Source: an uncultured Methanosarcinales archaeon
GTDB taxonomy: Archaea > Halobacteriota > Methanosarcinia > Methanotrichales > Methanotrichaceae
Assembly (NCBI GenBank): GCA_963843555.1
Contig: CAWJKV010000014.1
Span: 96,001-160,000, forward strand
Direction of reading: 5' to 3'
Length of the DNA: 64,000 nucleotides
The notes under the pieces are model-generated. The model was not told where the DNA came from and made no database searches. It saw only the letters and a program-made list of their open reading frames with translations. The stretch's first letter is position 1. Every line of letters starts with the position of its first letter. The position numbers and the translations under genes are program-made. Shown one piece after another: positions 28,034 through 46,861 of the stretch.

Positions 28034-30001
28034 ATGGATCCAAAGCAGCAGATATATAGTCAAGAACGACCAAAAGACAATATGAGGGCCGAAAAATTGA
28101 CTTTGGAAGACGGGTCGAAAGAGCTGCTTGGCGATATTGATTTTCAGGACACAAGCAGCATAACCGTGCCTGAGAGCCTCATTGATCAGGTGATCGGCCA
28201 GGAAGAAGCCGTTGAAGTGATCAAGAAGGCAGCGCGCCAAAGAAGGCATGTCATGCTCATCGGGTCGCCGGGAACAGGAAAATCCATGCTCGGTAAGGCC
28301 ATGAGCGAGCTTCTTCCTGTAGAGGAGCTACAGGATGTGCTGGTCTATTCCAATCCGGAGGACAACAATACCCCACGCATCCGCGTCGTGCCTGCCGGCA
28401 GGGGCAAGCAGATCGTCGATGCTCAGAAGATGGAGGCCAGAAAGAAGATCCAGACACGGAACATGTTCTTAATGCTCATAGTAATGGCTCTAATCGTTTA
28501 TGCTTACTACATGGGCCAGCTTCTCTTCGGCATCATAGCCGCAGCGCTTCTATTCATCTCCTTGCGCTACATGCTGCCCAAAGAGGATGCTATGGTTCCG
28601 AAGCTGCTGGTTGACAACAACAGCAAGAAAAAGGCGCCCTATGTCGATGCCACAGGAGCGCACGCAGGAGCCCTTCTGGGCGACGTCCGGCATGACCCCT
28701 TCCAGTCCGGTGGCCTGGAGACACCTTCTCACGAGCGAGTGGAATGCGGCGCCATTCATAAGGCCCACAAAGGCGTCCTCTTCATTGACGAGGTAAACAC
28801 CCTGCGACCGGAATCGCAGCAAAGCCTGCTCACAGCTCTGCAGGAGGGCGAGTATCCTATCACCGGCCAGAGCGAACGCAGCTCGGGTGCCCTGGTCAGA
28901 ACGGAGCCCGTGCCCTGTAACTTTATCATGATAGCAGCCGGAAATCTGGATGCTGTGCAAGGAATGCATCCGGCCTTGAGGTCGCGCATAAAAGGCTACG
29001 GGTATGAGGTCTACATGCGGGATACCATGGACGACACCCTGGAGAATAGAAATAAGCTCATCAGATTCGTGGCCCAGGAGATCGTAAGGGATGGCAAAAT
29101 ACCGCACTTTACAAGGGATGCTGTAGCTGAGATCATGCGAGAAGCCAAGAGGAGGTCCGGCAGGAAAGGCCACCTCACATTGATGCTCCGCGATCTGGGC
29201 GGTTTGATCAGAGTTTCGGGAGATGTTGCCCGGGCCGAAAGTGCAAACCTGACCGAGACGAATCACGTCCTGCAGGCCAAGAAGATGGCCCGGTCGGTGG
29301 AACAGCAGCTCGCAGACAGGTACATGGAAAGGCGCAAGGATTACAGCATGTTCCACTCCACCGGAGATGAGGTGGGAAGAGTCAACGGTCTTGCCGTTAT
29401 GGGCGACTCCGGAATAGTGCTGCCCATCATGGCCGAGGTCACCCCAGCCCAGTCCAAAGAGGAAGGGAAGATCATAGCCACGGGGAAATTGCAGGAGATC
29501 GCCAGGGAAGCAGTGACGAATGTCTCCGTGCTCATCAAGAAGTTCCTGGGAGAAGACATCACCAACAAGGATGTTCATATCCAGTTCATCGGCACCTATG
29601 AGGGAGTGGAAGGCGACAGCGCCTCTATCTCCATCGCCACGGCGGTCATATCCGCTCTGGAAGGCGTGCCTGTGAAGCAGACGGTGGCCATGACCGGCTC
29701 ACTGTCAGTGCGAGGAGACGTCATGCCTGTGGGCGGAGTGACGCAAAAGATCGAGGCCGCAGCCCTCGCAGGCATCAAGACGGTGCTGATACCCAAATCC
29801 AATATGGGAGACGTGCTGATCGATGACGCCATCAAGGGCATGATTGAGATCATCCCGGTATCCAACATCAGCGAGGTCTTTGAGTACGCCATGGGCAGTC
29901 AGAGGACCAGGCTGATCGAGAAGCTGAAGAGGTTTGCCACAGAAAAGAAGATCGGCATCATTCTGCCCGAGACCATCCCAGCTCCCATCCGGAGCGTCTG
30001 A
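28034..30001 (+). CDS. lonB: Archaeal membrane-bound ATP-dependent protease LonB
   Basis: GSPGTGKS, two TM segments inside the AAA domain, catalytic EGDSAS and PVGGVTQKIEAA. Confidence 0.97.
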   Translation: MDPKQQIYSQERPKDNMRAEKLTLEDGSKELLGDIDFQDTSSITVPESLIDQVIGQEEAVEVIKKAARQRRHVMLIGSPGTGKSMLGKAMSELLPVEELQDVLVYSNPEDNNTPRIRVVPAGRGKQIVDAQKMEARKKIQTRNMFLMLIVMALIVYAYYMGQLLFGIIAAALLFISLRYMLPKEDAMVPKLLVDNNSKKKAPYVDATGAHAGALLGDVRHDPFQSGGLETPSHERVECGAIHKAHKGVLFIDEVNTLRPESQQSLLTALQEGEYPITGQSERSSGALVRTEPVPCNFIMIAAGNLDAVQGMHPALRSRIKGYGYEVYMRDTMDDTLENRNKLIRFVAQEIVRDGKIPHFTRDAVAEIMREAKRRSGRKGHLTLMLRDLGGLIRVSGDVARAESANLTETNHVLQAKKMARSVEQQLADRYMERRKDYSMFHSTGDEVGRVNGLAVMGDSGIVLPIMAEVTPAQSKEEGKIIATGKLQEIAREAVTNVSVLIKKFLGEDITNKDVHIQFIGTYEGVEGDSASISIATAVISALEGVPVKQTVAMTGSLSVRGDVMPVGGVTQKIEAAALAGIKTVLIPKSNMGDVLIDDAIKGMIEIIPVSNISEVFEYAMGSQRTRLIEKLKRFATEKKIGIILPETIPAPIRSV

Positions 30002-30005
30002 CCAA

Positions 30006-31326
30006 ATGGCACCGGAGTTCCATGACATCCGCATTTTGCGGGGCAGCAGAACGAGGATTGTCCTGGACAATGGCAAGCTGGAAGAGATATCCCAGGCACC
30101 ATTCCAGGGGGCATCAGTGCGCGCTCTGTACGGAGGTGCCTGGGGTTTTGTTACAACCGATAGCGTAGATGGCCTGGAGGAAGAGATCGATCTGGCCAGG
30201 CGCATAGCCAGGAAGATCGACAGACAGGAGGAGCTGAGGCTGGCAGAGGCGCCAGCCGGTAAGAGCATAGCGGTGCCTGTGAAGAAAGACCCGAAAGACC
30301 TCTCTTTAGAGGAGAAGGTAGGGCTCCTCAGGGAGATTGAGGACTGCGGCAAAAGTTAAAGGCGTCTCCTCAACCCAGGCGGTCTACTCGGAGATGGAAC
30401 TGGTGTCACACTACAGCAGCTCTGAAGGCCTGGATCTGGAATCGAAGACGACCAGAATGGGCTTTATGGTCAGCGCTGTAGCCCACAGAAACGGGCTCTA
30501 CCAGACAGATGGAGAAGGCCGGGCGGGCGTGGGCGGACTCGAGCTCTTTGATCGGGAAGACCCCGTAGCTCTGGCCAGGGTAGTAGGAGAGACGGCCGTT
30601 GCACTCCTGGATGCACAGGCGCCCAGAGGTGGAACCTATCCCGTAGTCCTCGATCAGGAGCTCGCCGGCGTGTTTGTTCATGAGGCCGTGGGCCATGCCA
30701 CGGAAGGGGATATAATTTTGGAGGGGGACTCCTGTCTGGAAGGAAAGCTTGGCGAGACGATCGCGTCAGAAATGGTGACCGTAAAAGATGACCCTAGCCT
30801 GATGCTAAACGGCTATTACCCCTTTGATGATGAGGGAAGCCTGGCCCAGGAGACGGTCTTGGTCGAGAAAGGAGTACTGAGATCGTTTCTCAATACTCGC
30901 GAGACAGCCGCAAGATTGGGTGGGGTGCCGCGTAATGCGCGTGCTGAGGGCACTGACCGGCCGGTGGTGCGCATGAGCAATACCTACATTGCCAACGGGG
31001 ACTGGAAATTAGAAGAAATCCTGGAGGAGCTGGGCAGTGGAGTCTATCTGGCAGGAAGCCGGGGGGGACAGGTGAGCACCGGAGAGGGTGTCTTCCAGTT
31101 CAATGCCAAGAGCGGTTACCTGGTGGAAGATGGAGAGAAGACGAAGCTACTCCGGGACGTGTCCCTGTCCGGCAAGATCTTAGAGACTTTACTGCATGTC
31201 AAGGCTGTAGGAAATGATCTGAAATATAACAGCGGGCGCTGCGGAAAATCCGGTCAGTTAGTGCCCGTGAGCGACGGATCGCCCCATCTGCTAGTCGCCC
31301 AGGCGACAGTTGGCGGAACGGGATAA
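30006..31326 (+). CDS. tldD: TldD/PmbA family metalloprotease (one frameshift near 30345)
   Basis: GASVRAL.GGAWGF, HEAVGHATEGD, FDDEG, RMSNTYI, CGKSGQLVPVSDGSPH. Confidence 0.9.
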
Positions 31327-34188: not shown

Positions 34189-35159
34189 CTATTCACCGTC
34201 GTTCTTTCGCCTCAACTCAATTCCAGTCCGGTTATCTATTTTCCTTCTTCCCTCTTCCTCTCCCTCTTCCATCTTCAACAGGGCGCTTCTGCTATGCTCC
34301 AATAGTATGGAGACAATGCCTTCCGTCTCGCCCAGGCCGCGTAGCTGCACCTCAACCTCGAAACCCTCCCGCTCCAGGGTGCTCTTCCAGGACTCGGGGG
34401 CCGCTCCTGCGATATCATTTTCGGCATGCCCTCCGGCCACCAGCAGAAAGGGCAGCAGTCTGACCTTTCTCGTCCCGAGGCTCTTTAGCTCTGCCACCAT
34501 TTCAGATAGCCCTGGAAAGCCTTCAATCGTGCCCAGGAAGACGTTGCGGTGATCCTTCTCCAAAACGCGGGCCATAAGAGAGTAGAGGGCATCCGCCGGA
34601 TGGCCTGTGCCGTGGCCCGCCAGAAGCATAGCATCCTTTTGCGGGTCGAGATCGGAGAGGCTCTGCAGCTTGCCCTTCCTCTGCGCTCTCTCCTTCTCCC
34701 CAGCCGGAGCCGTTCCACAAAGCGGGCAGGACTCTGGAGACCCTGTCGGCAGTCTTCCAGGCTCGAGAGGAGAGGCAGGCCGATCTCCAGCCGTTCGAAG
34801 TCGGGCTCTGCCCCATGAACTGTAAGATCCTGCACCAGTGAAGCTAACAGGTGAAACTCAGACCCCGGCACGATCTGCAGGGATTGGATGACCACACTCC
34901 TGCATCCCGAGGAGTGCAGCTCCGCAAGCGCTTCCAGAGGGCTGGCGACGGTGATCCCCTCCTTCTCCCGCAATCTCTTTATCATGAGCCTGGAGGTGAA
35001 GGCCAGCCTGACAAGGGTGCCGGGGAACTCGAGCTCGTAGGCTTTCCGCATGCGCTCATAGGTTGCCAGGGCCCGAGTTGAAAGAGAGCCGTAGGGCGCG
35101 AGGACAATTGCGGGTTTTTTCAGGGATGGCATCCGATCAACTCCGTTGTTGCAGTTCAA
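34189..35159 (-). CDS. cbiK: Sirohydrochlorin cobaltochelatase CbiK-like (frameshifted)
   Basis: AIVLAPYGS, AFTSRLM, QSLQIVPGSEF, LAGHGTGHPA, PFLLVAGGHAENDIAG...SWKS. Confidence 0.85.
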
Positions 35160-35597
35160 TCATCAGAATAGAATCTGCTTCCGCTACTCTTCTTTTGACT
35201 TGCCCTCGAACTCCTGAAAAGTTCGCAGCGCCGGATGCCAGGACCTTTGTCTGGCCGATGATGGCGGCGATGAAGACTGCATCCAGGATCTCGTCCTCGC
35301 TCGCGCCCGCGCGCGCTGCGGCGCTCATGTGCACCTTCAGGCACTTGTCCGCGCCAGAGCTTGCGGCTGCGGCCACGGCCAGCAGCTCCGCGGTCTTGGG
35401 GTCGAGGCTTTTGGGCCGCAGGGCATAGAAGTCCTTCAGGCTGGAGAAGATCATGAACTCCGGGCGGCGGGCCATGACCTGCAGGATGAAGGGCACGGTG
35501 CCCAGCATCTGTTCGGTGTCGTCGAAGATGTCCTCCTGCAGAGAGTCGCTGATTGCTCCAGGAGGGCTTTGATGAGGTCTTTGTTTTCGGGTTTCAT
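35137..35597 (-). CDS. Carboxymuconolactone decarboxylase (CMD/AhpD-like) family protein (frameshift near the 5' end)
   Basis: LDPKTAELLAVAAAA...CLKVHM.AA..AGASEDEI; ATG at 35597 directly follows the stop of the TPR gene. Confidence 0.85.
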
Positions 35598-37050
35598 TTA
35601 ATCACGTATGCTTTCATTTTCCCATTCTTGCAGCTTTCGCCTTATCTTCTCGGCATGTGGATCTTCGATCTCTTCAAGAATTTTGAGAGCGGCTTTGGCA
35701 CAGTCAATATGCTTTCGCTCTCTGGCCAAGTTGATCTAAAGCAAGACTCATGTTCCATAGAGCGTTTCCTTCTCCTCTTCTGTCCCCGATCTCGCGGGAG
35801 AGCTTTAAGGCCTGCTCGTAGTACTCGATGGCCTTGCGGACATCGCCCAAGGTCGGCGTAGCCGCGCCCAGGTTGCCCAGGTCGGTCCCTTCACCGCCTC
35901 GGTCGCCGATCTCGCGGGCGATGGCCAGCGCCTGCTCGTAGTACTCGATGGCCTTGTGGAGCATCGCCCAGGTCGGCGTAGGCCAGCCCAGGTTGCCCAG
36001 GTTTGCACCTTCACCCCTTCTGTCCCCTATCTCGCGGGCGATGGCCAGTGCCTGCTCGTAGTACTCGATGGCCTTGCGGACATCGCCCAGGTCGGCGTAG
36101 GCATTGCCCAGGTTGCCCAGTGCATTTCCTTCACCCCTTCTGTCCCCGATCTCGCGGGCGATCGCCAGGGCCTGCTCGTAGTACTCGATGGCCTTGCGGA
36201 CATCGCCCAGGTCGGCGTAGGCATTGCCCAGGTTGCCTAAGCCATGCTCCTTCACTTCTTCTGTCCCCGATCTCGCGGGCGATGGTCAGCGCCTGCTCGT
36301 GGTACTCGATGGCCTTGCGGACATCGCCCAAGGCGTAGTAGGCATTGCCTAGATTGCCTCAGTGCGATTCCTTCGCCCCTTCGGTCACCGATCTCGCAAG
36401 CTATGGCCAGAGCCTGCTCGAAGCACTCGATGGCCTTGCATTGCTCACTTAACAAAGAATGAACTGTACCCAGCTCATTCAGGATATTTGCTCTCTCTCT
36501 CTGATCACTAATCTTCTCCAACAAGTACTCGTTAATGCTCTTGCGCCTCAGCAATTCCTCTTTGTTCTGATAGCTGAAGTCGAGTGGCATAGACAGCGCC
36601 TCTATGGCTTGATAGGCCTGCCCATGATCTTCACCTTTCAGTATGTGGTATCCGCCTCTGTACCTCCAGAAGTCGGGAGCTTGCCAGATCACATCATCCA
36701 GCGCCGCTGGAGTCATGAAGATCAGGCTCGGCACGCCTGCATCGTAAAAAAGCTCGCGAAAGTTGTTTAGAGCATCTAAAATATCTTTGCTAAGCGTCTC
36801 GGGAAGAATCCATACCAGGATCTCCTCTTCCATCGGCCTGAATGCTCCGAAGATCGGAGATGAGACAATCACCATTCTCTACCGCCACGATTCTGGCAGG
36901 AAATCGTGCCTTTATAACTTCAATTACCTTCTCTCGATAAGCAGGAGATGCGACTGTGCAGAGAATGAGGTTTCCTTTCCCCTGAGAGATCTTCAGCTCC
37001 GTGAGCAGGAGATCGATCTCATCCAGATCCTCTAGGGAGAGCGGCTCCAT
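35598..37050 (-). CDS. TPR protein with a degenerate NTPase-like N-terminal domain (several frameshifts)
   Basis: N-terminal region with LNNFRE...P.LIF....APDFWRYR and no Walker A; about seven 40-aa TPR units; reconstructed C-terminus ...EIEDPHAEKIRRKLQEWENESIRD. Confidence 0.85.
35740..36430 (-). repeat. 120-nt tandem repeats encoding near-identical TPR units
   Basis: GCCTGCTCGT(A/G)GTACTCGATGGCCTTG recurs about every 120 nt. Confidence 0.93.
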
Positions 37051-38297
37051 TTCTCCACCAGGGGAAGCAGCATGGGGTCGATCTCGCACCATCTTCCCTC
37101 TTCATCCTCGTATTCGACGGCAGTCAGGCTGAAGAGCAGCTCACGGGTCAGAACTGAATCCGGCCCTTCTTCTCTGGCCTCCTTGCAGCTGTTGATCTCC
37201 AGCAGCTTCTTCTTATGGGCCTCGGTGAGGGTTCGATCATAGGTCATTCTCAGCTTCTCAAGAGCGGAGGCGACGTCATTGTTGGATATGCGCTTCTGAC
37301 CCTTGCGAAAAGCGTTAAGCGATGCCTCTTTCATCACTTCCACCAGCTCGGAAAGCTTGCCGGTGGACACGATTGCCTGCTCCAGAACATTCTCCTCCAG
37401 GAGATCCAGCTCTATCCTCCGGGAAATTACATCCGAGTAAAACTTACGCCCTTCTATGTGCGGATCTCCGTTTCTCTTCCTTACCGGCATTTGCAGAAGG
37501 ATCACATCACCGTCGAAGGCATGCCTGACGTTCTCGTACTGGGGATGAAAGGCCAGGGGTATGGGAAATGTGTAAACCACAAAGCAGCTCGGCTCGATCA
37601 AGAGCTGATAATTCTTATAGAAAAATTCCTCCGACTGCTGTCCTCTGGTTAATTTATCCAGATCGTCAACAATGATCACCAGCTCTTTTCCCGACTTTTC
37701 TTCGATGTCTATTATGAGCCAGTTGAGCCTCTGAATGAGATCGCTGATCTTCTGATCCAGCTCCTTCCTGAGGCACTGACGGGTCGTGGCCTCCCGGCTG
37801 AGCTTGAGGATGACGATCTGACTCCAGGAGAGACCGGCTGAGCTCTGGCTGGTTACCTCCTCCTCGGTTATGCTCGTTATTCGCTTGGTGAAATCCTGGA
37901 AATCCTTCTCGATGTCGGGATGGAGAGTTATTCCTTCCACTCTGGCGATGTCGTAGACTTTGAGCGCCATGGAAACAAAGAAGTCGCGAAAATCGAAGTC
38001 GCTTAAATTAAGATCATCCCGGATGGAGTAGTTCACCACCAGAAAGCGGCTCTTATCCAGTGCCGCCTCCAGGCGGTACAGCTCTGTGCTCTTTCCAGAA
38101 CCCCGGAAGCCCAGGAACAGATATTTTTCCCTGCGGCTGGCAAGCTCAATTCGGTCTCTTAAATCCAGCATGGGTGAGACAGAGCCCGGCCGCTCGACAT
38201 AGAAATCCGCGATCTCCTGATCCTCTTTTAGCGGCTCGACGTAAAAATTGTTGTAAGCCTCTTTCAAATCCTTTGCCCTGGGCATGACATCAACCAC
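37032..38297 (-). CDS. P-loop ATPase (AAA/STAND-like), translationally coupled to the TPR gene
   Basis: FYVER, Walker A GFRGSGKST, Walker B VIIVDDLDK; 3' end overlaps the TPR start by 19 nt. Confidence 0.9.
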   Translation of the reverse strand: MVDVMPRAKDLKEAYNNFYVEPLKEDQEIADFYVERPGSVSPMLDLRDRIELASRREKYLFLGFRGSGKSTELYRLEAALDKSRFLVVNYSIRDDLNLSDFDFRDFFVSMALKVYDIARVEGITLHPDIEKDFQDFTKRITSITEEEVTSQSSAGLSWSQIVILKLSREATTRQCLRKELDQKISDLIQRLNWLIIDIEEKSGKELVIIVDDLDKLTRGQQSEEFFYKNYQLLIEPSCFVVYTFPIPLAFHPQYENVRHAFDGDVILLQMPVRKRNGDPHIEGRKFYSDVISRRIELDLLEENVLEQAIVSTGKLSELVEVMKEASLNAFRKGQKRISNNDVASALEKLRMTYDRTLTEAHKKKLLEINSCKEAREEGPDSVLTRELLFSLTAVEYEDEEGRWCEIDPMLLPLVEKWSRSP

Positions 38298-38371
38298 GAT
38301 CTCCTTTCATCGTACTAACAGATAACATTTTTGAACCATTTTGCTACTTTCACCATTTTTAGATTACATTT

Positions 38372-38963
38372 TCAGCAAACCATCTTCTCATAGCAGTCCT
38401 TGCAGACCACCTTTCCCTTGGCCGTCCTCCCCAGGATCTCCATAAAGGCCTCGCCGCACTCCTGGCATTGCAGCGAAGGATAGATGCGGGCCTTCTCGGG
38501 TGCAGGAATATCAACCTCCCTAACCGAGAGTACATCCTCGTCTTTGGCGCCTGAGAATATCCTCAATGACCTTGGACCTCAGACCTTCCATCTCCTTCTT
38601 CTCCTCCGGCCCGAGCTCGCCTCTTGCGGCCTTTTGTCGCAGGGCATCCATGCGCTTGAAGACATTGCCCTTGAAATAGATGCGCAGTGCCTTGTCATTA
38701 TCGCGAGAATAGACCGTGAACACCTGTTTTCCGTTGTCAATCAGGATCAGATTGCCTTTGCCGGCTGTGCAGCCCAGGAGTGATTGTACGGCATCCACGC
38801 TGCAGGATTTGTTCTCGGCAATGCAGACCAGTTCCTCGTCCTTCGACCTGGGGTAGTGCTCCCTCACATATTTCGCCACCCGGTAGCCCATGGCCAGGCC
38901 CGGGCATATGTGGCCGTGAAACTCAGCGGCCTTCTTGAAGTCATCATCCATTTTTGTTATCAC
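38372..38963 (-). CDS. FmdE family protein with a C-terminal zinc finger (frameshifted)
   Basis: FHGHICPGLAMGYR, ENKSCSVDAVQ..LGCTAGKGNL, C..CGE.FME...VCKDC. Confidence 0.9.
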
Positions 38964-39139: not shown

Positions 39140-40060
39140 TCCTTGGCCCAGCATACCCGCCCTAGGAACCTCGACCGGGGTACTCATCAAGCAATAAACT
39201 GTAAGTGCCGCTGTACTTGGAATCAGTGATAACCATATAGCCTTCAGCTACCTGTATCTCATCTTCCACCGATATGGTCACAACTGTATGCCCACGATAG
39301 AAGCTGCATCTCCTGAACCTGATCTGGAACCTGGACTGGCCAGGCTCGCTTCCAGAGTCGATTTGTCTTCTGAGGATTCAAATGTGATATTTATCAGCCG
39401 ATAACTATCGTTGTTGAGCCTTAGGTTTCCCCTCAGGATCGCATCCCTTTCTCCAGCTCTCGCTTGGGATCTCACATCTTCAAGACTCAAGTTTGATGCG
39501 AGGAGATTTCTCGCTTCATCCGGGTCCACAGTCCAGATAGTCTCCACATTTAGCCTGATGGGATGGGATTCGTCGACTTTAGTCGCAATTCCTCGCCAAT
39601 TCTGGACCACGACATCGACAGTCCCGTCACCGATATCATTGGTTATCGCATGAGCATCTGCGGCAATGGCGTCACTGGAACCGTTTACGGAGTTGATATT
39701 TGCTCCACCCGGTCATGCCCATTTGCGGTGATGATGTTTCACCCATTTGCGGTGATGATGTTCCACCCATTTGCGGTGATGATGTTCCACCCATTTGCGG
39801 TGATGATGTTCCACCCATTTGCGGTGATGACGTTCCACCCATTTGCGGTGATGATGCTTCCACCCATTTGCGGTGATGATGTTCCACCCGTTTGCGGTGA
39901 TGATGTTCCACCCGCTTGCGGTGATGACGTTCCACCCATTTGCGGGTGATGTTTCACCCATATGCTGTGCTGATGAGCCTGAGCAGCTAATTACCAGTAA
40001 TAATATTGCCAGATAGAAAGAGATCAATTCCTGGCACCGTGTTCGCATCATTTCAGTCAT
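39140..40060 (-). CDS. Secreted hypothetical protein with (MGGTSSPQ)n repeats, frameshifted; 3' end approximate
   Basis: The signal peptide ends AQHMGETS, matching the repeat frame; the protein continues into the 39278-39610 fragment. Confidence 0.6.
39721..39959. repeat. Ten tandem copies of a 24-nt unit (ATTTGCGGTGATGATGTTCCACCC)
   Basis: Read directly; no spacers; two copies carry indels. Confidence 0.95.
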
Positions 40061-40156: not shown

Positions 40157-40462
40157 TTAGTCTTGGCAGCTACCGTCACGGGCTCGGTCCGGGCTTGGTC
40201 ACCGTCATGGTCGCCGTCTGGATTTCAATTCTCCGGGTTTCCATGCTGGTTGCCTAGTCCGTCTTGGTCTCCATTCGGGCAGTCAGTGGTGCAGCCACAG
40301 TCCTCGCCGCAGTTTCCATTCTGTGCGATTCCATTCTGTGCTGCGATTCCATTCTGCACTGCGATTCCATTCTGTGCTCGCATTTCCATTCTGTGCTGCC
40401 AGGGCAGGAAACGCCAGAAGGCAGGCAACTAATAGAGCAGACAATATAGCTACGTACTTCAT
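40157..40462 (-). CDS. Small secreted protein with 18-nt (AAQNGI) repeats and a Cys/Asp-rich tail, probably ending RDGSCQD (frameshifted)
   Basis: GGAGG RBS; signal MKYVAILSALLVACLLAFPALA; AQNG repeats; CGEDCGCTTDC. Confidence 0.55.
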
Positions 40463-43337: not shown

Positions 43338-45183
43338 CTAACCTACCGTCACCACATTGCTCTGGCCTAGGAGCTGGTAAGCCCCTTGACCTTCACTTGT
43401 GATGTCAGAGCGGAACATCCTGAAGTCGTACCGCCCCGGCTCCGTGGGAAGCTGCCAGGTCATTCTGCCGCAGTTCTCGCTGCCAACCGACCTCTTCCCC
43501 ACAGGGAACTTGTCAGGTCTGTTTACCCCGTACATGCCGATGATACCCGTTCCTTCCGGAGGTGCTCCCCAGTAGGTTACGGTGACTGTACCTCCGGGCG
43601 CAACATGAGATGGTGAGGCTATGACTTTGTTGCCCTTCATGATTTTGACTTCCACACTGTTGCTGGTGGCCAGCCGGGTGTAACTATCGTTCTCGAAAAA
43701 CCTGAATTCATAGCTTCCAGGATCGGAAGCCTCCAGGGTCACGTGTGCCGTTCTCTTTTCCATCCAGATACTGACGGCTGGTGTAACTGTCGTCGGACGA
43801 TCCGGATTTGTACATGGCTATCCAGTCGTTCTCATAACCTGGGGCTCCTTTGTAGCTGACGGTGATCAGCTCACAGGTGTTCACCAGGGTCGGAGTTGCA
43901 TTGATGGTTGGAATGCGAACGCTGAAATTAAGAGAGACCATCTCCTCGCCACTGGTGGTATTGTACATGCGAAGATCAAAAAGCCCCTCATCGGCCGGAG
44001 CCTTTAGCATCAGCATGCCTGATGAGCCTGCCAGGTTCTGGCGGGACAGAGCCATATCCGGGCTGGCTTTGCCTCTGGGCTGATCAGTCTTCATCACTCC
44101 CACCCAGCCAGAGAAATTCTCTGGAGCGGCATACAACACATTGACGTCATGCCCGGGCAGGTAGGTTTTCTGGTCCATCTTCAGCTCTGAGCCCACCAAA
44201 CCACGGGACTTGTAACTGAGTATGGCGTCAGGAGAAGCTTTCGGCATCTCGGTCCACGTTGCGTCCGCCCGGAATGCTGTAACCAGAGTCGCAGATCCCG
44301 TCTCTGTTGCGATCATTGCAGCCCTGCTCACGGGCATCGTAGTCGCCGAAGTGGTTGCCTATCATATCGTTGTCCCACTGGTTGTAGCCATCGTCGAAGG
44401 CATTCTGAATGTTGTCCTGCAGGTTGTTCTGATAGAGAAGGTTGGCACCTGCTGATGATGAGTTCGTGCTATTCTGTCCAATGTTGTAAGGGGTCGACTG
44501 CTTGCCAGAGACGTACGCTATGGATACTCCCTTTCCCTTGCCTTTGCCTTTTGCTGTGATGCTCTCGCTTAAGTTGATGTTCGAGATGTTTATGCCCATC
44601 TTGTTCCGGGTCAGGTCGTTGGCATTGATTGTATTGCCTCGGGAGGTTACGACGGAGATACCATCCCAGTTCATGCTGGCATTGTTGCTCCCAGATCTGG
44701 TTGTCGTTGGCGTGAACCAGCAGGATTCCGCCTTTTTTGTTTTCTGTCACGATATTTGAAAAGACATTGTTTTTGTCGACGTAGTAAAGGATAATTCCGT
44801 AGTTATCATTTTCGACGGCTGTATTGTCTTTGATTGTATTTCCGTCGGAGAGCACCTTTATGCCGGCATCATTCGCATCTTTGCCAGAACCCAGTAGCCG
44901 TAAATCCCAACAGAGTTGAACCGTTGGCCGAGATGGTTATAGCGCTTCCCTTGCCGCCGGCGTCAATAATTGGATTGCCCATGCCTATGAGGGTGAGCGG
45001 TTTGGTTACATTGACGCTCTCGTGATAGGTGCCGTTTTGCACCTCAACGATTTGGCCTGGATTAGCGGCGTTTATGAACGACTGGATACTTTGTCCCGGT
45101 TTGACATAGTATGTAGTAGCATTTGCTAAACCAGAGAGCATCACTACGATAATCGCTAGAATTACCACAGTGGATTTACTCAT
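43338..45183 (-). CDS. Secreted NosD/CASH beta-helix protein with C-terminal Ig-like domains (about four frameshifts)
   Basis: SIQ..INAA.PG..V.V..GTY.ESVNV.KPLTL.G; N..GI repeats; NQWD...IGN...DY; DWIAMY..G Ig units. Confidence 0.75.
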
Positions 45184-45372
45184 CCTGGGGCTCAACCCTT
45201 TCTGCATGTTCACTGGATGGCTCAAGCAGTATAAGATGGTGATCGTTAATGAAAATGCATTATTTCCTACCAAAGCTGCTCCAGAGTTTCTCCGGCTTTT
45301 TCGGAAGCTTTTGGTAGTTTAAGGCATAGTTCAGATATATTGATTGCAGCATTGAATCTGTCAGGAATTCTG

Positions 45373-46861
45373 TCAAGTCACGCCCTTGCACAGCTCCCCG
45401 CCGCTCTCCAGATCCTCCCGGAAGAGATCCTTCTTCTTTCGCAGGCCCAGGCGCAGGGCAAGCTTACGTTTGGCATAAAATGGAGCCAGCCGCAGCGTCT
45501 CCAGGATGAACCATTTTGGATAGAGGTGCTTAACTTTATTGTACCTGAACCAATCGAGATCATAGTAGCGGGCGTTCATCTGCCAGGTGATATACTGCAC
45601 TTCTTCATCGCTTAAGTGCTTGGTTCTTAAATTGGCATGCAGACCATCGTACTTGGTGAAGTCGTTATTGGTAACAAGGCCCATCTCCTCCAGCTCGGCG
45701 CGCATCTGGGTCTTGGGATAGGGAGTGGAGATGTAGAAGATTGGCACGTCCACCCTCAGCCGTCGCGCAAGCTTGAAGTTCTCCCACATGTCCTCTTCAT
45801 CGTCATCCGGATTGCCGCCGATGAGGCCTGTGGAGACTATGATATTATTGTCATGAAGATATGAGACGGCAGTCTCAGCATCATTGGACATCTTGCCCTT
45901 GCCCAGGAATTCCAGGTTCCTCTTGTTCACGCTTTCCACACCGAGGAAGACACCGTCAAATCCCGCTTCGCCCATTTTGTCTACCAGCTGCCTGCTCGAT
46001 GCTATTCCCGAGGCGGAGGCCTGCGTCTTGTAGCGCAAGTGGGTTAGCCCGGCATCGATGATGGCCTGGCAGAGCCTCTCCAGCCGCTTGGGATCTAAGG
46101 TGATGTTGTCGTCCGGGAAGAAGATGGAGCCTGCCCCGTGTTCCTCTGCATCACTGAATATCGGCGATAACGCGATCGATCGAAAACTTGCGGAACCTGC
46201 GGCCGTACATGAGATTTATGCTGCAGAACTTGCAGCCCTGGGTGCATCCCCGGCTGGTCTCCACCGAGTCGATGGGAATGCCGAGGCTGTTGAAACCTCG
46301 GGTGAGCAGCCGAGCGTCGCGGTTGGGCATCTTGATATCTTCCACATTGAGCAGCGGTCGCGCCGGATTGTGAACCATCTTCTCCCCTTCGTGATAGGAG
46401 AGCCCCAGGATCTCCTCCGGACTCCTGCCTGCCGTCAAGGCCAGGGCAAGCTCCCGGAAGGTGGCCTCGCCCTCGCCCCGCACAATGTAGTCGATGAACG
46501 CCGCATCCGGGCTTTCGGCGATTTCTTCTGCGGCCAGAGTAGGATGATAGCCTCCAAAGACCGTCTGGGCTCCTGCATGCTTGGCTATTCTGGCCAGGGC
46601 TAAGGCCTCTTGATACTGGAAGCTCATCGCAGTTATGCCCACCAGATCGTAATCGTTGACCTTCTTCTCTACATATTCTCTGTGGTTCTTCAATCCATGG
46701 ATATCGGCCACGTGAACAGTGCACAGGTCATCCACATGGGCCGCCAGTGACGCCAGACCCAAATTGGGCAGGCGGGCTATGCGGTCAAAGTCGGGCTGCA
46801 CTACAGGAGAGGAAAGCAATAGAATCTTCATCATTCCTGATCCCGCAATCCTAGCTGTCAT
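45373..46861 (-). CDS. B12-binding radical SAM enzyme (class B methylase/HpnR-BchE-like), one frameshift near 46150; likely start 46834
   Basis: PNLGLASLAA, VGITAMS, VFGGYHPT, VRGEGE, RGCTQGCKFC, VFLGVES, TPYPKT. Confidence 0.9.

Follow-up and report, generated by a model that had tools for sequence, protein, structure and literature searches.

In a 64,000-nucleotide stretch of DNA from an uncultured Methanosarcinales archaeon (assembly GCA_963843555.1, contig CAWJKV010000014.1, positions 96,001 to 160,000; the whole stretch is called the window below), a gene for an intact AAA+ ATPase, here termed A, is followed directly by a partner gene, B, which joins a Walker-less AAA+ domain to an array of tetratricopeptide repeats (TPR). 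On balance, A and B probably belong to a biological-conflict system and form an NLR-like ATP switch made of two chains, with B docking on the ATP site of A and supplying an arginine in trans. This reading is based on the folds predicted for both chains, the conservation of their motifs, the linkage of the genes, the exchange with NB-ARC-TPR genes at the slot, hypervariability of the repeats and the pattern of domain fusions, and the signs of an NLR-like role are good but indirect. The features of the module are as follows.

37032..38297, minus strand: gene A, an intact AAA+ ATPase of the Cdc6/Orc/TnsC/STAND clade by predicted fold and structure comparison
38085..38111, minus strand: Walker A motif of A, GFRGSGKST, residues 63-71 (sequence, conservation)
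37656..37676, minus strand: Walker B motif of A, IIVDDLD, residues 208-214, followed by the conserved K215 (sequence, conservation)
35598..37050, minus strand: gene B, with predicted Walker-less AAA+ N-domain, short linker and TPR array; eight frame changes here, intact in relatives
36639..37050, minus strand: N-domain of B, about 140 amino acids, predicted five-stranded, lidless AAA+ core (model from the intact relative L031)
36753-36770, minus strand: conserved LNxxRE motif of the B N-domain (LNNFRE in the window)
36657-36680, minus strand: APDFWxxR motif of the B N-domain (APDFWRYR in the window), its last Arg at the presumed arginine-finger position
35762..36439, minus strand: array of 40-amino-acid (120-nucleotide) TPR units, a tandem repeat of 5.6 copies with 83% matches

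An intact ATPase and a Walker-less partner

Gene A is an open frame of 421 amino acids from its GTG start, or of 417 from an alternative ATG at 38285, which is the usual start among relatives. The initial annotation of this DNA had described an intact P-loop ATPase overlapping the start of its partner, and this is indeed the arrangement found, with the ATG of B at 37050 falling 19 nucleotides within the end of A and B ending at 35598. Across 128 homologues of A, the Walker A residues G63, G66, K69 and T71 are conserved to at least 90% and G68 is invariant; conservation extends to Walker B and, in the lid, to R294 and G313. The model built from these 128 sequences (predicted local distance difference test, pLDDT, 95.5) has an AAA+ core, into which a helical stretch of about 100 residues with the conserved R173 and R177 is inserted, a lid and a C-terminal winged helix, i.e. 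the same core, lid and winged helix that the available text of 10.1101/2022.07.19.500537 gives as the STAND-Cdc6-Orc plan. In structure searches the model matched Cdc6 (Z 16.4, root-mean-square deviation (rmsd) 3.0, 244 residues aligned), TnsC (Z 16.2, rmsd 3.8, 288 aligned) and Cdc6/Orc1 (Z 15.8) and, over its whole length, PAB2304 (Z 15.9, rmsd 4.6, 302 aligned) and SSO1545 (Z 15.2, rmsd 4.8, 303 aligned), with resistosomes and BrxC scoring lower. The predicted fold thus supports placing A among the Cdc6/Orc/STAND-clade ATPases with a winged helix.

By sequence, A of the window has no match above cut-off in Pfam, NCBIfam or PADLOC, the best NCBIfam match being to the Sll1717 family (32 bits against a cut-off of 75); the KAP NTPase model PF07693 reaches 13.8 bits in the window (cut-off 20) and matches 18 of 50 homologues at E ≤ 0.01, at best with 2e-10. 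A sequence search of solved structures returned nothing for A and TPR matches alone for B. The A family is large, comprising 2,220 clusters at E ≤ 0.001 and 1,079 clusters (50% identity) at E ≤ 1e-10, and its look-alikes in the Atlas are mostly cyanobacterial.

The N-domain of B was said in the initial annotation to lack Walker A while keeping the pattern LN..RE...APDFW..R, and both parts of this description hold: the two motifs are present in the window copy and GxxxxGK[ST] is not, nor does it occur in the first 150 amino acids of any of 92 homologues. In the same 92 sequences no acidic pair is conserved in the Walker B strand. When the N-domain was folded from L031 with these sequences, the blocks covering residues 11-140 reached a pLDDT of 87-98, and the model comprises the core, a low-confidence linker (141-155), one helix and then the TPRs, with neither lid nor winged helix. 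It aligns with NSF-D2 over 134 residues (Z 11.0, rmsd 2.9), tied with RFC, TnsC and Cdc6, and all 50 matches listed in the fold search are P-loop ATPases, nearly all of them AAA+. Pfam has no match for this domain, and it is the model that supports regarding it as a Walker-less, i.e. dead, AAA+ core. We do not claim that B arose as a duplicate of A, as aligning a profile of the B N-domain with one of A gave no significant match (probability 2%, E 0.023); in the register of this non-significant alignment, strands of B lie over the Walker B and sensor-1 strands of A.

The last arginine of APDFWxxR (R131 in L031 numbering) ends the helix before strand 5 in the B model. We take this place to be the arginine-finger position of AAA+ proteins, which fits the order of elements in the model. 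R131 is kept in 88 of the 92 B homologues; of 104 A-B pairs, 94 have it and two others have Lys instead. In A, an arginine at position 260, immediately before a conserved Phe, occurs in 5 of 128 homologues and in 6 of the 104 pairs.

Linkage and modularity of the two genes

The linkage of A and B was examined in loci from relatives, from the phylum and from a GTDB scan (best 80 of 541 confirmed stretches). Counting A genes with a C-terminal match and at least 500 nucleotides downstream, and using B profiles crossed between archaea and bacteria so that each was scored on held-out loci, B directly follows A in 92 of 92 distinct loci (archaeal profile, 42/42 bacterial loci; bacterial profile, 50/50 archaeal loci). 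The pairing is therefore not due to chance, and the co-occurrence of the two families, which the initial annotation had named as a check, is borne out. Draws from two bacterial phyla gave B after A in 17 of 18 loci (15 new, three repeats), with one weak match (E 0.009) and a single miss in a locus that ends inside A, and among six plasmid regions a clear B domain follows A in four and a weak partial match in one, with none in L173. A variation on the theme is seen in Calothrix (L178), where two A genes precede one protein with two B domains.

The two chains differ in what they are joined to. The chain of A ends after the winged helix (close homologues have 411-446 amino acids) and its ATPase fold begins at residue 5-11, without an N-terminal effector domain; the TPRs sit on B instead. 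The split STAND/NLR-like architecture proposed in the initial annotation is upheld in part, in that A has the predicted Cdc6/Orc/STAND fold and B a Walker-less AAA+ domain. Unlike one-piece STAND/NLR receptors, the pair does not carry its sensor repeats on the active NTPase chain and lacks the N-terminal effector. Fusions of A are limited to some distant homologues and involve TIR (L178), the vWA of a MoxR-VMAP ternary system (L173), AAA_21 (P0196) and a ParA-like domain (P0259). Among 46 chosen B proteins (E 1e-8), TPRs are present in 44, preceded in two cases by an NB-ARC or AAA_16 domain, whereas one protein carries NACHT and one nothing; elsewhere B is joined to WD40 (L174, and L175 and L178 by annotation), to NACHT plus FGE (3 of 120 matches listed) or, together with TPRs, to cNMP-binding domains (L228, L229). 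From these fusion patterns, sensor-type domains attach to B, and effectors or other parts of conflict systems to A. No GT4 or HEPN effector was found in the 46 B proteins (E 1e-8) or among the Pfam marks of the 120 matches listed.

Two further proteins contain one of the domains in another setting: in L230 (L230:99-4532) A is the C-terminal domain of a 1478-amino-acid protein, the first 1040 residues of which have no Pfam match at E 0.001, and in P0311, which may be a chimera, a B domain lies in a 440-amino-acid protein with a partial AI-2E transporter match.

A hypervariable repeat face and a variable chromosomal slot

The near-identical TPRs noted on the partner in the initial annotation are present with a 120-nucleotide period. 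Comparison of 65 distinct 40-amino-acid units shows a nearly fixed scaffold, on which positions 3, 4, 10, 13, 14, 18 and 30 vary at 2.7-3.4 bits. Among six intact pairs, mean identity falls from 0.89 in A to 0.83 in the B N-domain and 0.59 in the TPRs. In fungal and prokaryotic NLRs, TPRs are likewise described as internally conserved and reshuffling in the accessible part of 10.1101/2020.01.06.895854. At the DNA level, the TPRs of the window are 75-85% identical to those of NB-ARC-TPR receptors, and to the TPR remnants, in the same slot of other Methanothrix.

This slot lies between two genes outside the module.

35137..35548, minus strand: CMD-family gene, downstream flank and one slot boundary
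38361..38963, minus strand: FmdE-family gene, upstream flank and other slot boundary

The pair is patchy and accessory in Methanothrix. Of 59 Methanothrix genomes 30 contain A, as do 15 of the 30 that are of high quality; it is present in 20 of 301 genomes of the phylum of the window and in 11 of 301 and 6 of 201 genomes of two bacterial phyla, all of these counts being samples that include some incomplete genomes. The region before CMD was compared in 20 of 38 CMD-positive genomes, chosen by hand to span carriers and non-carriers. It holds A-B in six (one with a partly deleted A) and is empty in another six, where FmdE, its occasional neighbour or the next upstream gene stands directly before CMD. 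An NB-ARC-TPR gene occupies it in three, i.e. L182, L190 (with B but no A) and L198 (after a caspase-like gene). TPR remnants are found in two genomes, and in one of these, L184, what is left of A is its first 11 residues, joined to the last TPRs; an unrelated repeat protein alone accounts for one genome and other synteny for two. A soil contig skips 35548-38370 altogether. Caspase-like genes occur at the slot in L036, L037 and L198, and in L036 the genes for A, B, the caspase, an adaptor and an NB-ARC-TPR protein stand in a row. As related strains carry one-piece immune-type receptors at the very same spot, the pair has the look of a candidate immune receptor divided between two chains.

Several other observations concern this slot. 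In L036 the small adaptor (L036:12813-13355), with the caspase gene just upstream, shares a motif with the N-terminus of the adjacent NB-ARC-TPR protein (L036:13362-14591; GPVRQHFGDKI and GPVEQQFGDRI), an arrangement that resembles amyloid signalling pairs, a resemblance and nothing more, and Q/G/N-rich stretches lie ahead of the NB-ARC domains in L182 and L190. A protein of about 290-350 amino acids with WNVYCxGD repeats recurs at the slot (L183:2745-3812, L184:3235-4275, L190:5643-6683, L182:5014-5904, L194:5390-6247); most copies have a signal-peptide-like start and it has no Pfam match at E 0.001. A second, distant A-B clade (about 28% identity in A) is located at other Methanothrix sites (L020, L011, L038, L039, L040, L042), and several genomes carry both clades. 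Upstream of FmdE in the window, small open reading frames contain tandem repeats (39718-39975, 24 nucleotides × 10.8; 40324-40399, 18 nucleotides × 4.2). Upstream of A, a scan for sigma-70 promoters and terminators, which is ill-suited to archaea, gave nothing, and among the sequencing runs none with RNA was listed, all shares being at most 0.11.

Frameshifts in the window copy of B

Gene B of the window contains eight frame changes in about 1.45 kb, the first two 1-nucleotide insertions being placed near 36842 and 36360, and A has none; in the relatives L031-L034, B is a single open frame of 363-523 amino acids. The family could thus be real while the window copy is a decaying pseudogene, with genuine frameshifts in B and A left as an orphan that is being lost, a question that is independent of what the pair does. 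Decay is possible because the density of frame changes in B exceeds the genome background, in which 4 of 23 orthologous genes (28.8 kb) lie in more than one frame, and partial losses are frequent in the genus (L041, L184, L197). Yet indels of 1-2 nucleotides set the window apart from short-read contigs of related strains not just in B but also in the neighbouring CbiK-like and CMD genes (34674-34747, 35234, 35549), which favours assembly error. The same genes are also broken in other few-contig assemblies (L036, L039, L042, L192), and the read-through path of B keeps all motifs without a premature in-frame stop. Other ordinary genes of the window are split over frames as well (29934-31326, 34189-35159, 44228-46861), which fits indel errors in a source genome of 18 contigs and 82% completeness whose closest named relatives are Methanothrix; from their translations we presume these genes to be TldD-like, CbiK-like and radical SAM. 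Judged by these comparisons, the frameshifts are probably assembly errors, and we consider genuine decay somewhat unlikely.

Proposed mechanism and alternative explanations

How could such a pair operate? B would be the input chain, the TPR array of which (elsewhere WD40, NB-ARC-TPR, NACHT-FGE or TPR-cNMP) may bind a foreign or stress ligand, and A would be the switch and output chain. The dead AAA+ domain of B is envisaged to dock back-to-face on the ATP site of A and to give R131 as a trans arginine, as BrxB does for BrxC, such that docking would control both hydrolysis and the oligomer state of A. Ligand binding to B could then alter the nucleotide or oligomer state of A, which in some genomes may signal to fused effectors (TIR, AAA_21, vWA, ParA-like); alternatively, A might signal to separate effectors (caspase, phosphoesterase-TIR) or act itself through its winged helix. 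Binding of A and B, the role of the arginine, the ligand, the direction of control, a function in defence and the output in Methanothrix are the parts of this scheme that we infer.

A number of observations weigh against this mechanism, beginning with the arginine itself. In four of the six pairs with Arg260 in A, B is without R131, as if one arginine compensated for the other, which speaks in favour of the mechanism, but three of these four are cyanobacterial kin and the cases are thus not independent; moreover, six of the 104 pairs have Arg at neither place (two of them with Lys in B). Arg258 of A is common, occurring in 43 of 128 homologues and in 62 of 104 pairs, among them that of the window, so that A may supply its own trans arginine, and the idea that A never carries one was dropped for this reason. 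The likely sensor-2 Arg is found in 78 of the 128 A homologues, with Ser (S316) in the clade of the window. Linkage has its exceptions, too: A stands without B in L173 and B without A in L190, several Anaerolineales loci have a second B paralogue away from A, and a fusion of the B domain to A in a single protein, which supports the partnership, is known from one record (P0157). A metagenome scan with this fusion gave no second case and one short unrelated match, and no longer fused A forms were found among proteins of 785-2240 amino acids, which is weak evidence. In the repeats, the proportion of nonsynonymous differences (pN) nears but at no unit position exceeds that of synonymous differences (pS), which is saturated at 0.68, and positive selection was thus not borne out; two of the three window units in this set span frameshifts.

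Nor does the genomic neighbourhood speak clearly for defence. Of 232 nearest-neighbour open reading frames, 145, mostly from archaeal loci, were compared with PADLOC at E 1e-10, and about 11 gave defence-type matches (caspase 2, phosphoesterase effector 2, AbiL 2, OLD/NsnB 1, mad2/mad3 3, PbeA 1), a count without a control set; the remaining matches were to generic TPR or enzyme models. The enrichment near defence genes, which the initial annotation had named as a check, is thus weak. An NCBIfam scan of 60 neighbour proteins, of which 12 had already been compared with PADLOC and 48 came from the other loci, returned mostly housekeeping or unnamed families. No effector is visible in the window, as the initial annotation had stated, or in most loci. 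In viral contigs, 63 pattern matches included no confirmed relative of A-B, and 50,697 phage records contained none.

Besides these counts, two loci have phosphoesterase genes near the pair: a metallophosphoesterase-TIR gene and an AfsR-like NTPase-TPR gene directly follow B in L083 (L083:2-3748), and L118 encodes a phosphoesterase-NTPase-TPR protein near A (L118:2553-6362).

Several of these points would fit a cellular signalling or localization module instead of a defence system, with B sensing an endogenous protein or cyclic nucleotide and A remodelling a host target in division, development or transcription. Sixteen Anaerolineales loci have the pair at a constant site behind an MraZ-like gene, with genes for LuxR two-component proteins, ParB and additional TPR proteins nearby, which further counts against a conflict system; some B proteins have cNMP-binding domains, most neighbours are housekeeping genes, and the searches gave no phage-borne relative and matches on just 9-10 of 72,556 plasmids. 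The patchy presence in Methanothrix, the phylum and the bacterial phyla argues the other way, as do the repeated deletion remnants, the slot exchange with NB-ARC-TPR and caspase genes and the hypervariable repeat face, and a signalling role therefore appears unlikely to us. The possibility raised in the initial annotation that the pair is a vertically inherited housekeeping unit is opposed by its accessory nature in Methanothrix but not by its fixed site in Anaerolineales. In this group and other Chloroflexota (L139, L150, L153, L160, L161, L166, L169, L227) there is, in addition, a conserved cluster of a stand-alone second B-domain/TPR gene, a sensor kinase, a LuxR regulator, the MraZ-like gene, A, B and further TPR genes, in some cases also with an Mrr-like nuclease or ParB.

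A could also form oligomers on DNA in the manner of Orc, TnsC or BrxC and act as the effector by itself, preventing invader DNA from being replicated, with B as a capping inhibitor or targeting factor (like BrxB or TniQ/TnsD) rather than an NLR-type receptor. In structure A comes closest to Cdc6, TnsC and Orc1/2, all of which bind DNA, with BrxC also listed, the helical insert has the conserved R173 and R177, most A proteins are without a fused effector, and bound BrxB is reported, in the portion of PMC13326643 available, to stop further stacking of BrxC. But no transposase, methylase, PglZ or helicase is a constant neighbour, and the Z scores of two archaeal STAND ATPases, PAB2304 and SSO1545, are on a level with those of Cdc6 and TnsC, so that we regard this explanation as quite improbable.

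If, by contrast, the two-chain ATP switch is correct, it represents a receptor design in which sensing and ATP switching are placed on two chains and coupled by an arginine finger. It would provide a small and testable NLR-like system from archaea, where such receptors have hardly been studied, and link the BrxB/BrxC mechanism of BREX to pattern-recognition receptors, with the hypervariable Methanothrix locus offering natural alleles for a ligand search. More tentatively, and with less confidence than in the switch as such, one may think of widespread archaeal and bacterial split NLRs, in which the recognition chain completes the ATPase site of the switch chain in trans and thereby wires recognition to catalysis, such that one constant ATPase is re-aimed by swapped sensor chains (TPR, WD40, NB-ARC/NACHT receptors, cNMP) and, in Methanothrix, a filamentous methanogen, takes turns with one-piece NLRs at one and the same immune locus.

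Relation to described systems

Searches with hidden Markov models of described systems gave no match to the pair. In the literature searched there is no description of it either; it could be named in subscription papers, in Leipe et al. 2004, in supplements on bioRxiv or in one supplement file of PMC8195603, which lie outside this literature. The idea of pairing an active with an inactive STAND protein is not new, however, as nSTAND2 (PMC8195603) and BrxC/BrxB (PMC13326643) demonstrate in the text available, yet A-B belongs to neither of these two families. By their Pfam tests, A-B fails to qualify as nSTAND2, BrxB or iSTAND, which appear as conceptual precedents.

The nearest described system is nSTAND2, an operon of an active plus an inactive STAND gene with TPRs and HEPN or GT4 (Kaur, Iyer, Burroughs, Aravind 2021; PMC8195603, as far as its text was accessible), which shares with A-B the order of an active gene followed by an inactive STAND-type gene with TPRs. 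It differs in that PF20702 has no match at four intact pair loci (G021, G015, G010, G022; E up to 1) and is not listed in the Pfam scans of the window, the homologues or the B N-domain, that B has neither winged helix nor lid and that GT4 and HEPN are missing from the scanned proteins; APDFW was not found in 12 of the 13 supplement files of PMC8195603, one of which was available only in part.

Mechanistically, BREX provides the closest parallel. In the accessible text of PMC13326643 and PMC12839542, an Orc/Cdc6-clade winged-helix ATPase, BrxC, is combined with a compact, lidless, Walker-less five-stranded AAA+ partner, BrxB. The latter gives an Arg to the ATP pocket of BrxC, blocks further stacking, raises ATPase activity 2-6 fold (PMC13326643) and links BrxC to another module; the sequence pattern of A-B would fit such arginine supply. 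Nevertheless, B has no match to PF08747, which does detect, as a positive control, a true BrxB above cut-off elsewhere in G015 (G015:C42:20047-20373), a relative with two A-B pairs, and the B model is without the three-stranded cap insert after strand 4. BrxB is absent among the rows listed in the B fold searches, which are filled by other AAA+ chains, and kinship is not thereby excluded. A has 421 amino acids compared with about 1200 for BrxC, no PglX, PglZ or BrxL occurs among the 145 nearest neighbours or the recurrent neighbour clusters, and B is fused to variable sensors, whereas TPR is nowhere mentioned in the main text of PMC12839542.

With NLR-like STAND proteins (NB-ARC-TPR, NACHT, Avs) the pair has in common a STAND-clade NTPase with winged helix and internally conserved, fast-diversifying TPR or WD40 repeats, as characterized in the available parts of 10.1101/2020.01.06.895854 and 10.1101/2022.07.19.500537, and with the NB-ARC-TPR receptors of Methanothrix it shares the chromosomal slot and closely related TPR units. 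In contrast to these proteins, A-B has NTPase and repeats on separate chains joined via a second, dead AAA+ domain, A is without an N-terminal effector, and A of the window has no match to Avs, NB-ARC or NACHT families. iSTAND, a domain of STAND type for which a sensor role has been proposed in the conflict systems of multicellular prokaryotes (PMC7159879, seen in excerpt), is similar in being inactive, and L173 has an A homologue joined to the vWA of a VMAP ternary system; PF19995 does not match, the partner ATPase is Cdc6-like rather than MoxR, and there is no vWA gene at the locus in the window. A preprint on ParA-like immune NTPases reports fusions of ParA to STAND and ORC/CDC6 domains, the A-B pair not being described in its accessible text (10.64898/2026.10.19.760177).

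The archaeal PH/SSO STAND types of the MNS clade, finally, resemble A in that its model matches PAB2304 and SSO1545 over the whole length. The Npun2340/2341 family of MNS-clade STAND ATPases is named, after Leipe et al. 2004, in the available text of PMC8195603, and identity with this family is the main risk to novelty. Overall, we regard A-B as a real, widespread and unnamed variant of the active-plus-inactive STAND theme.

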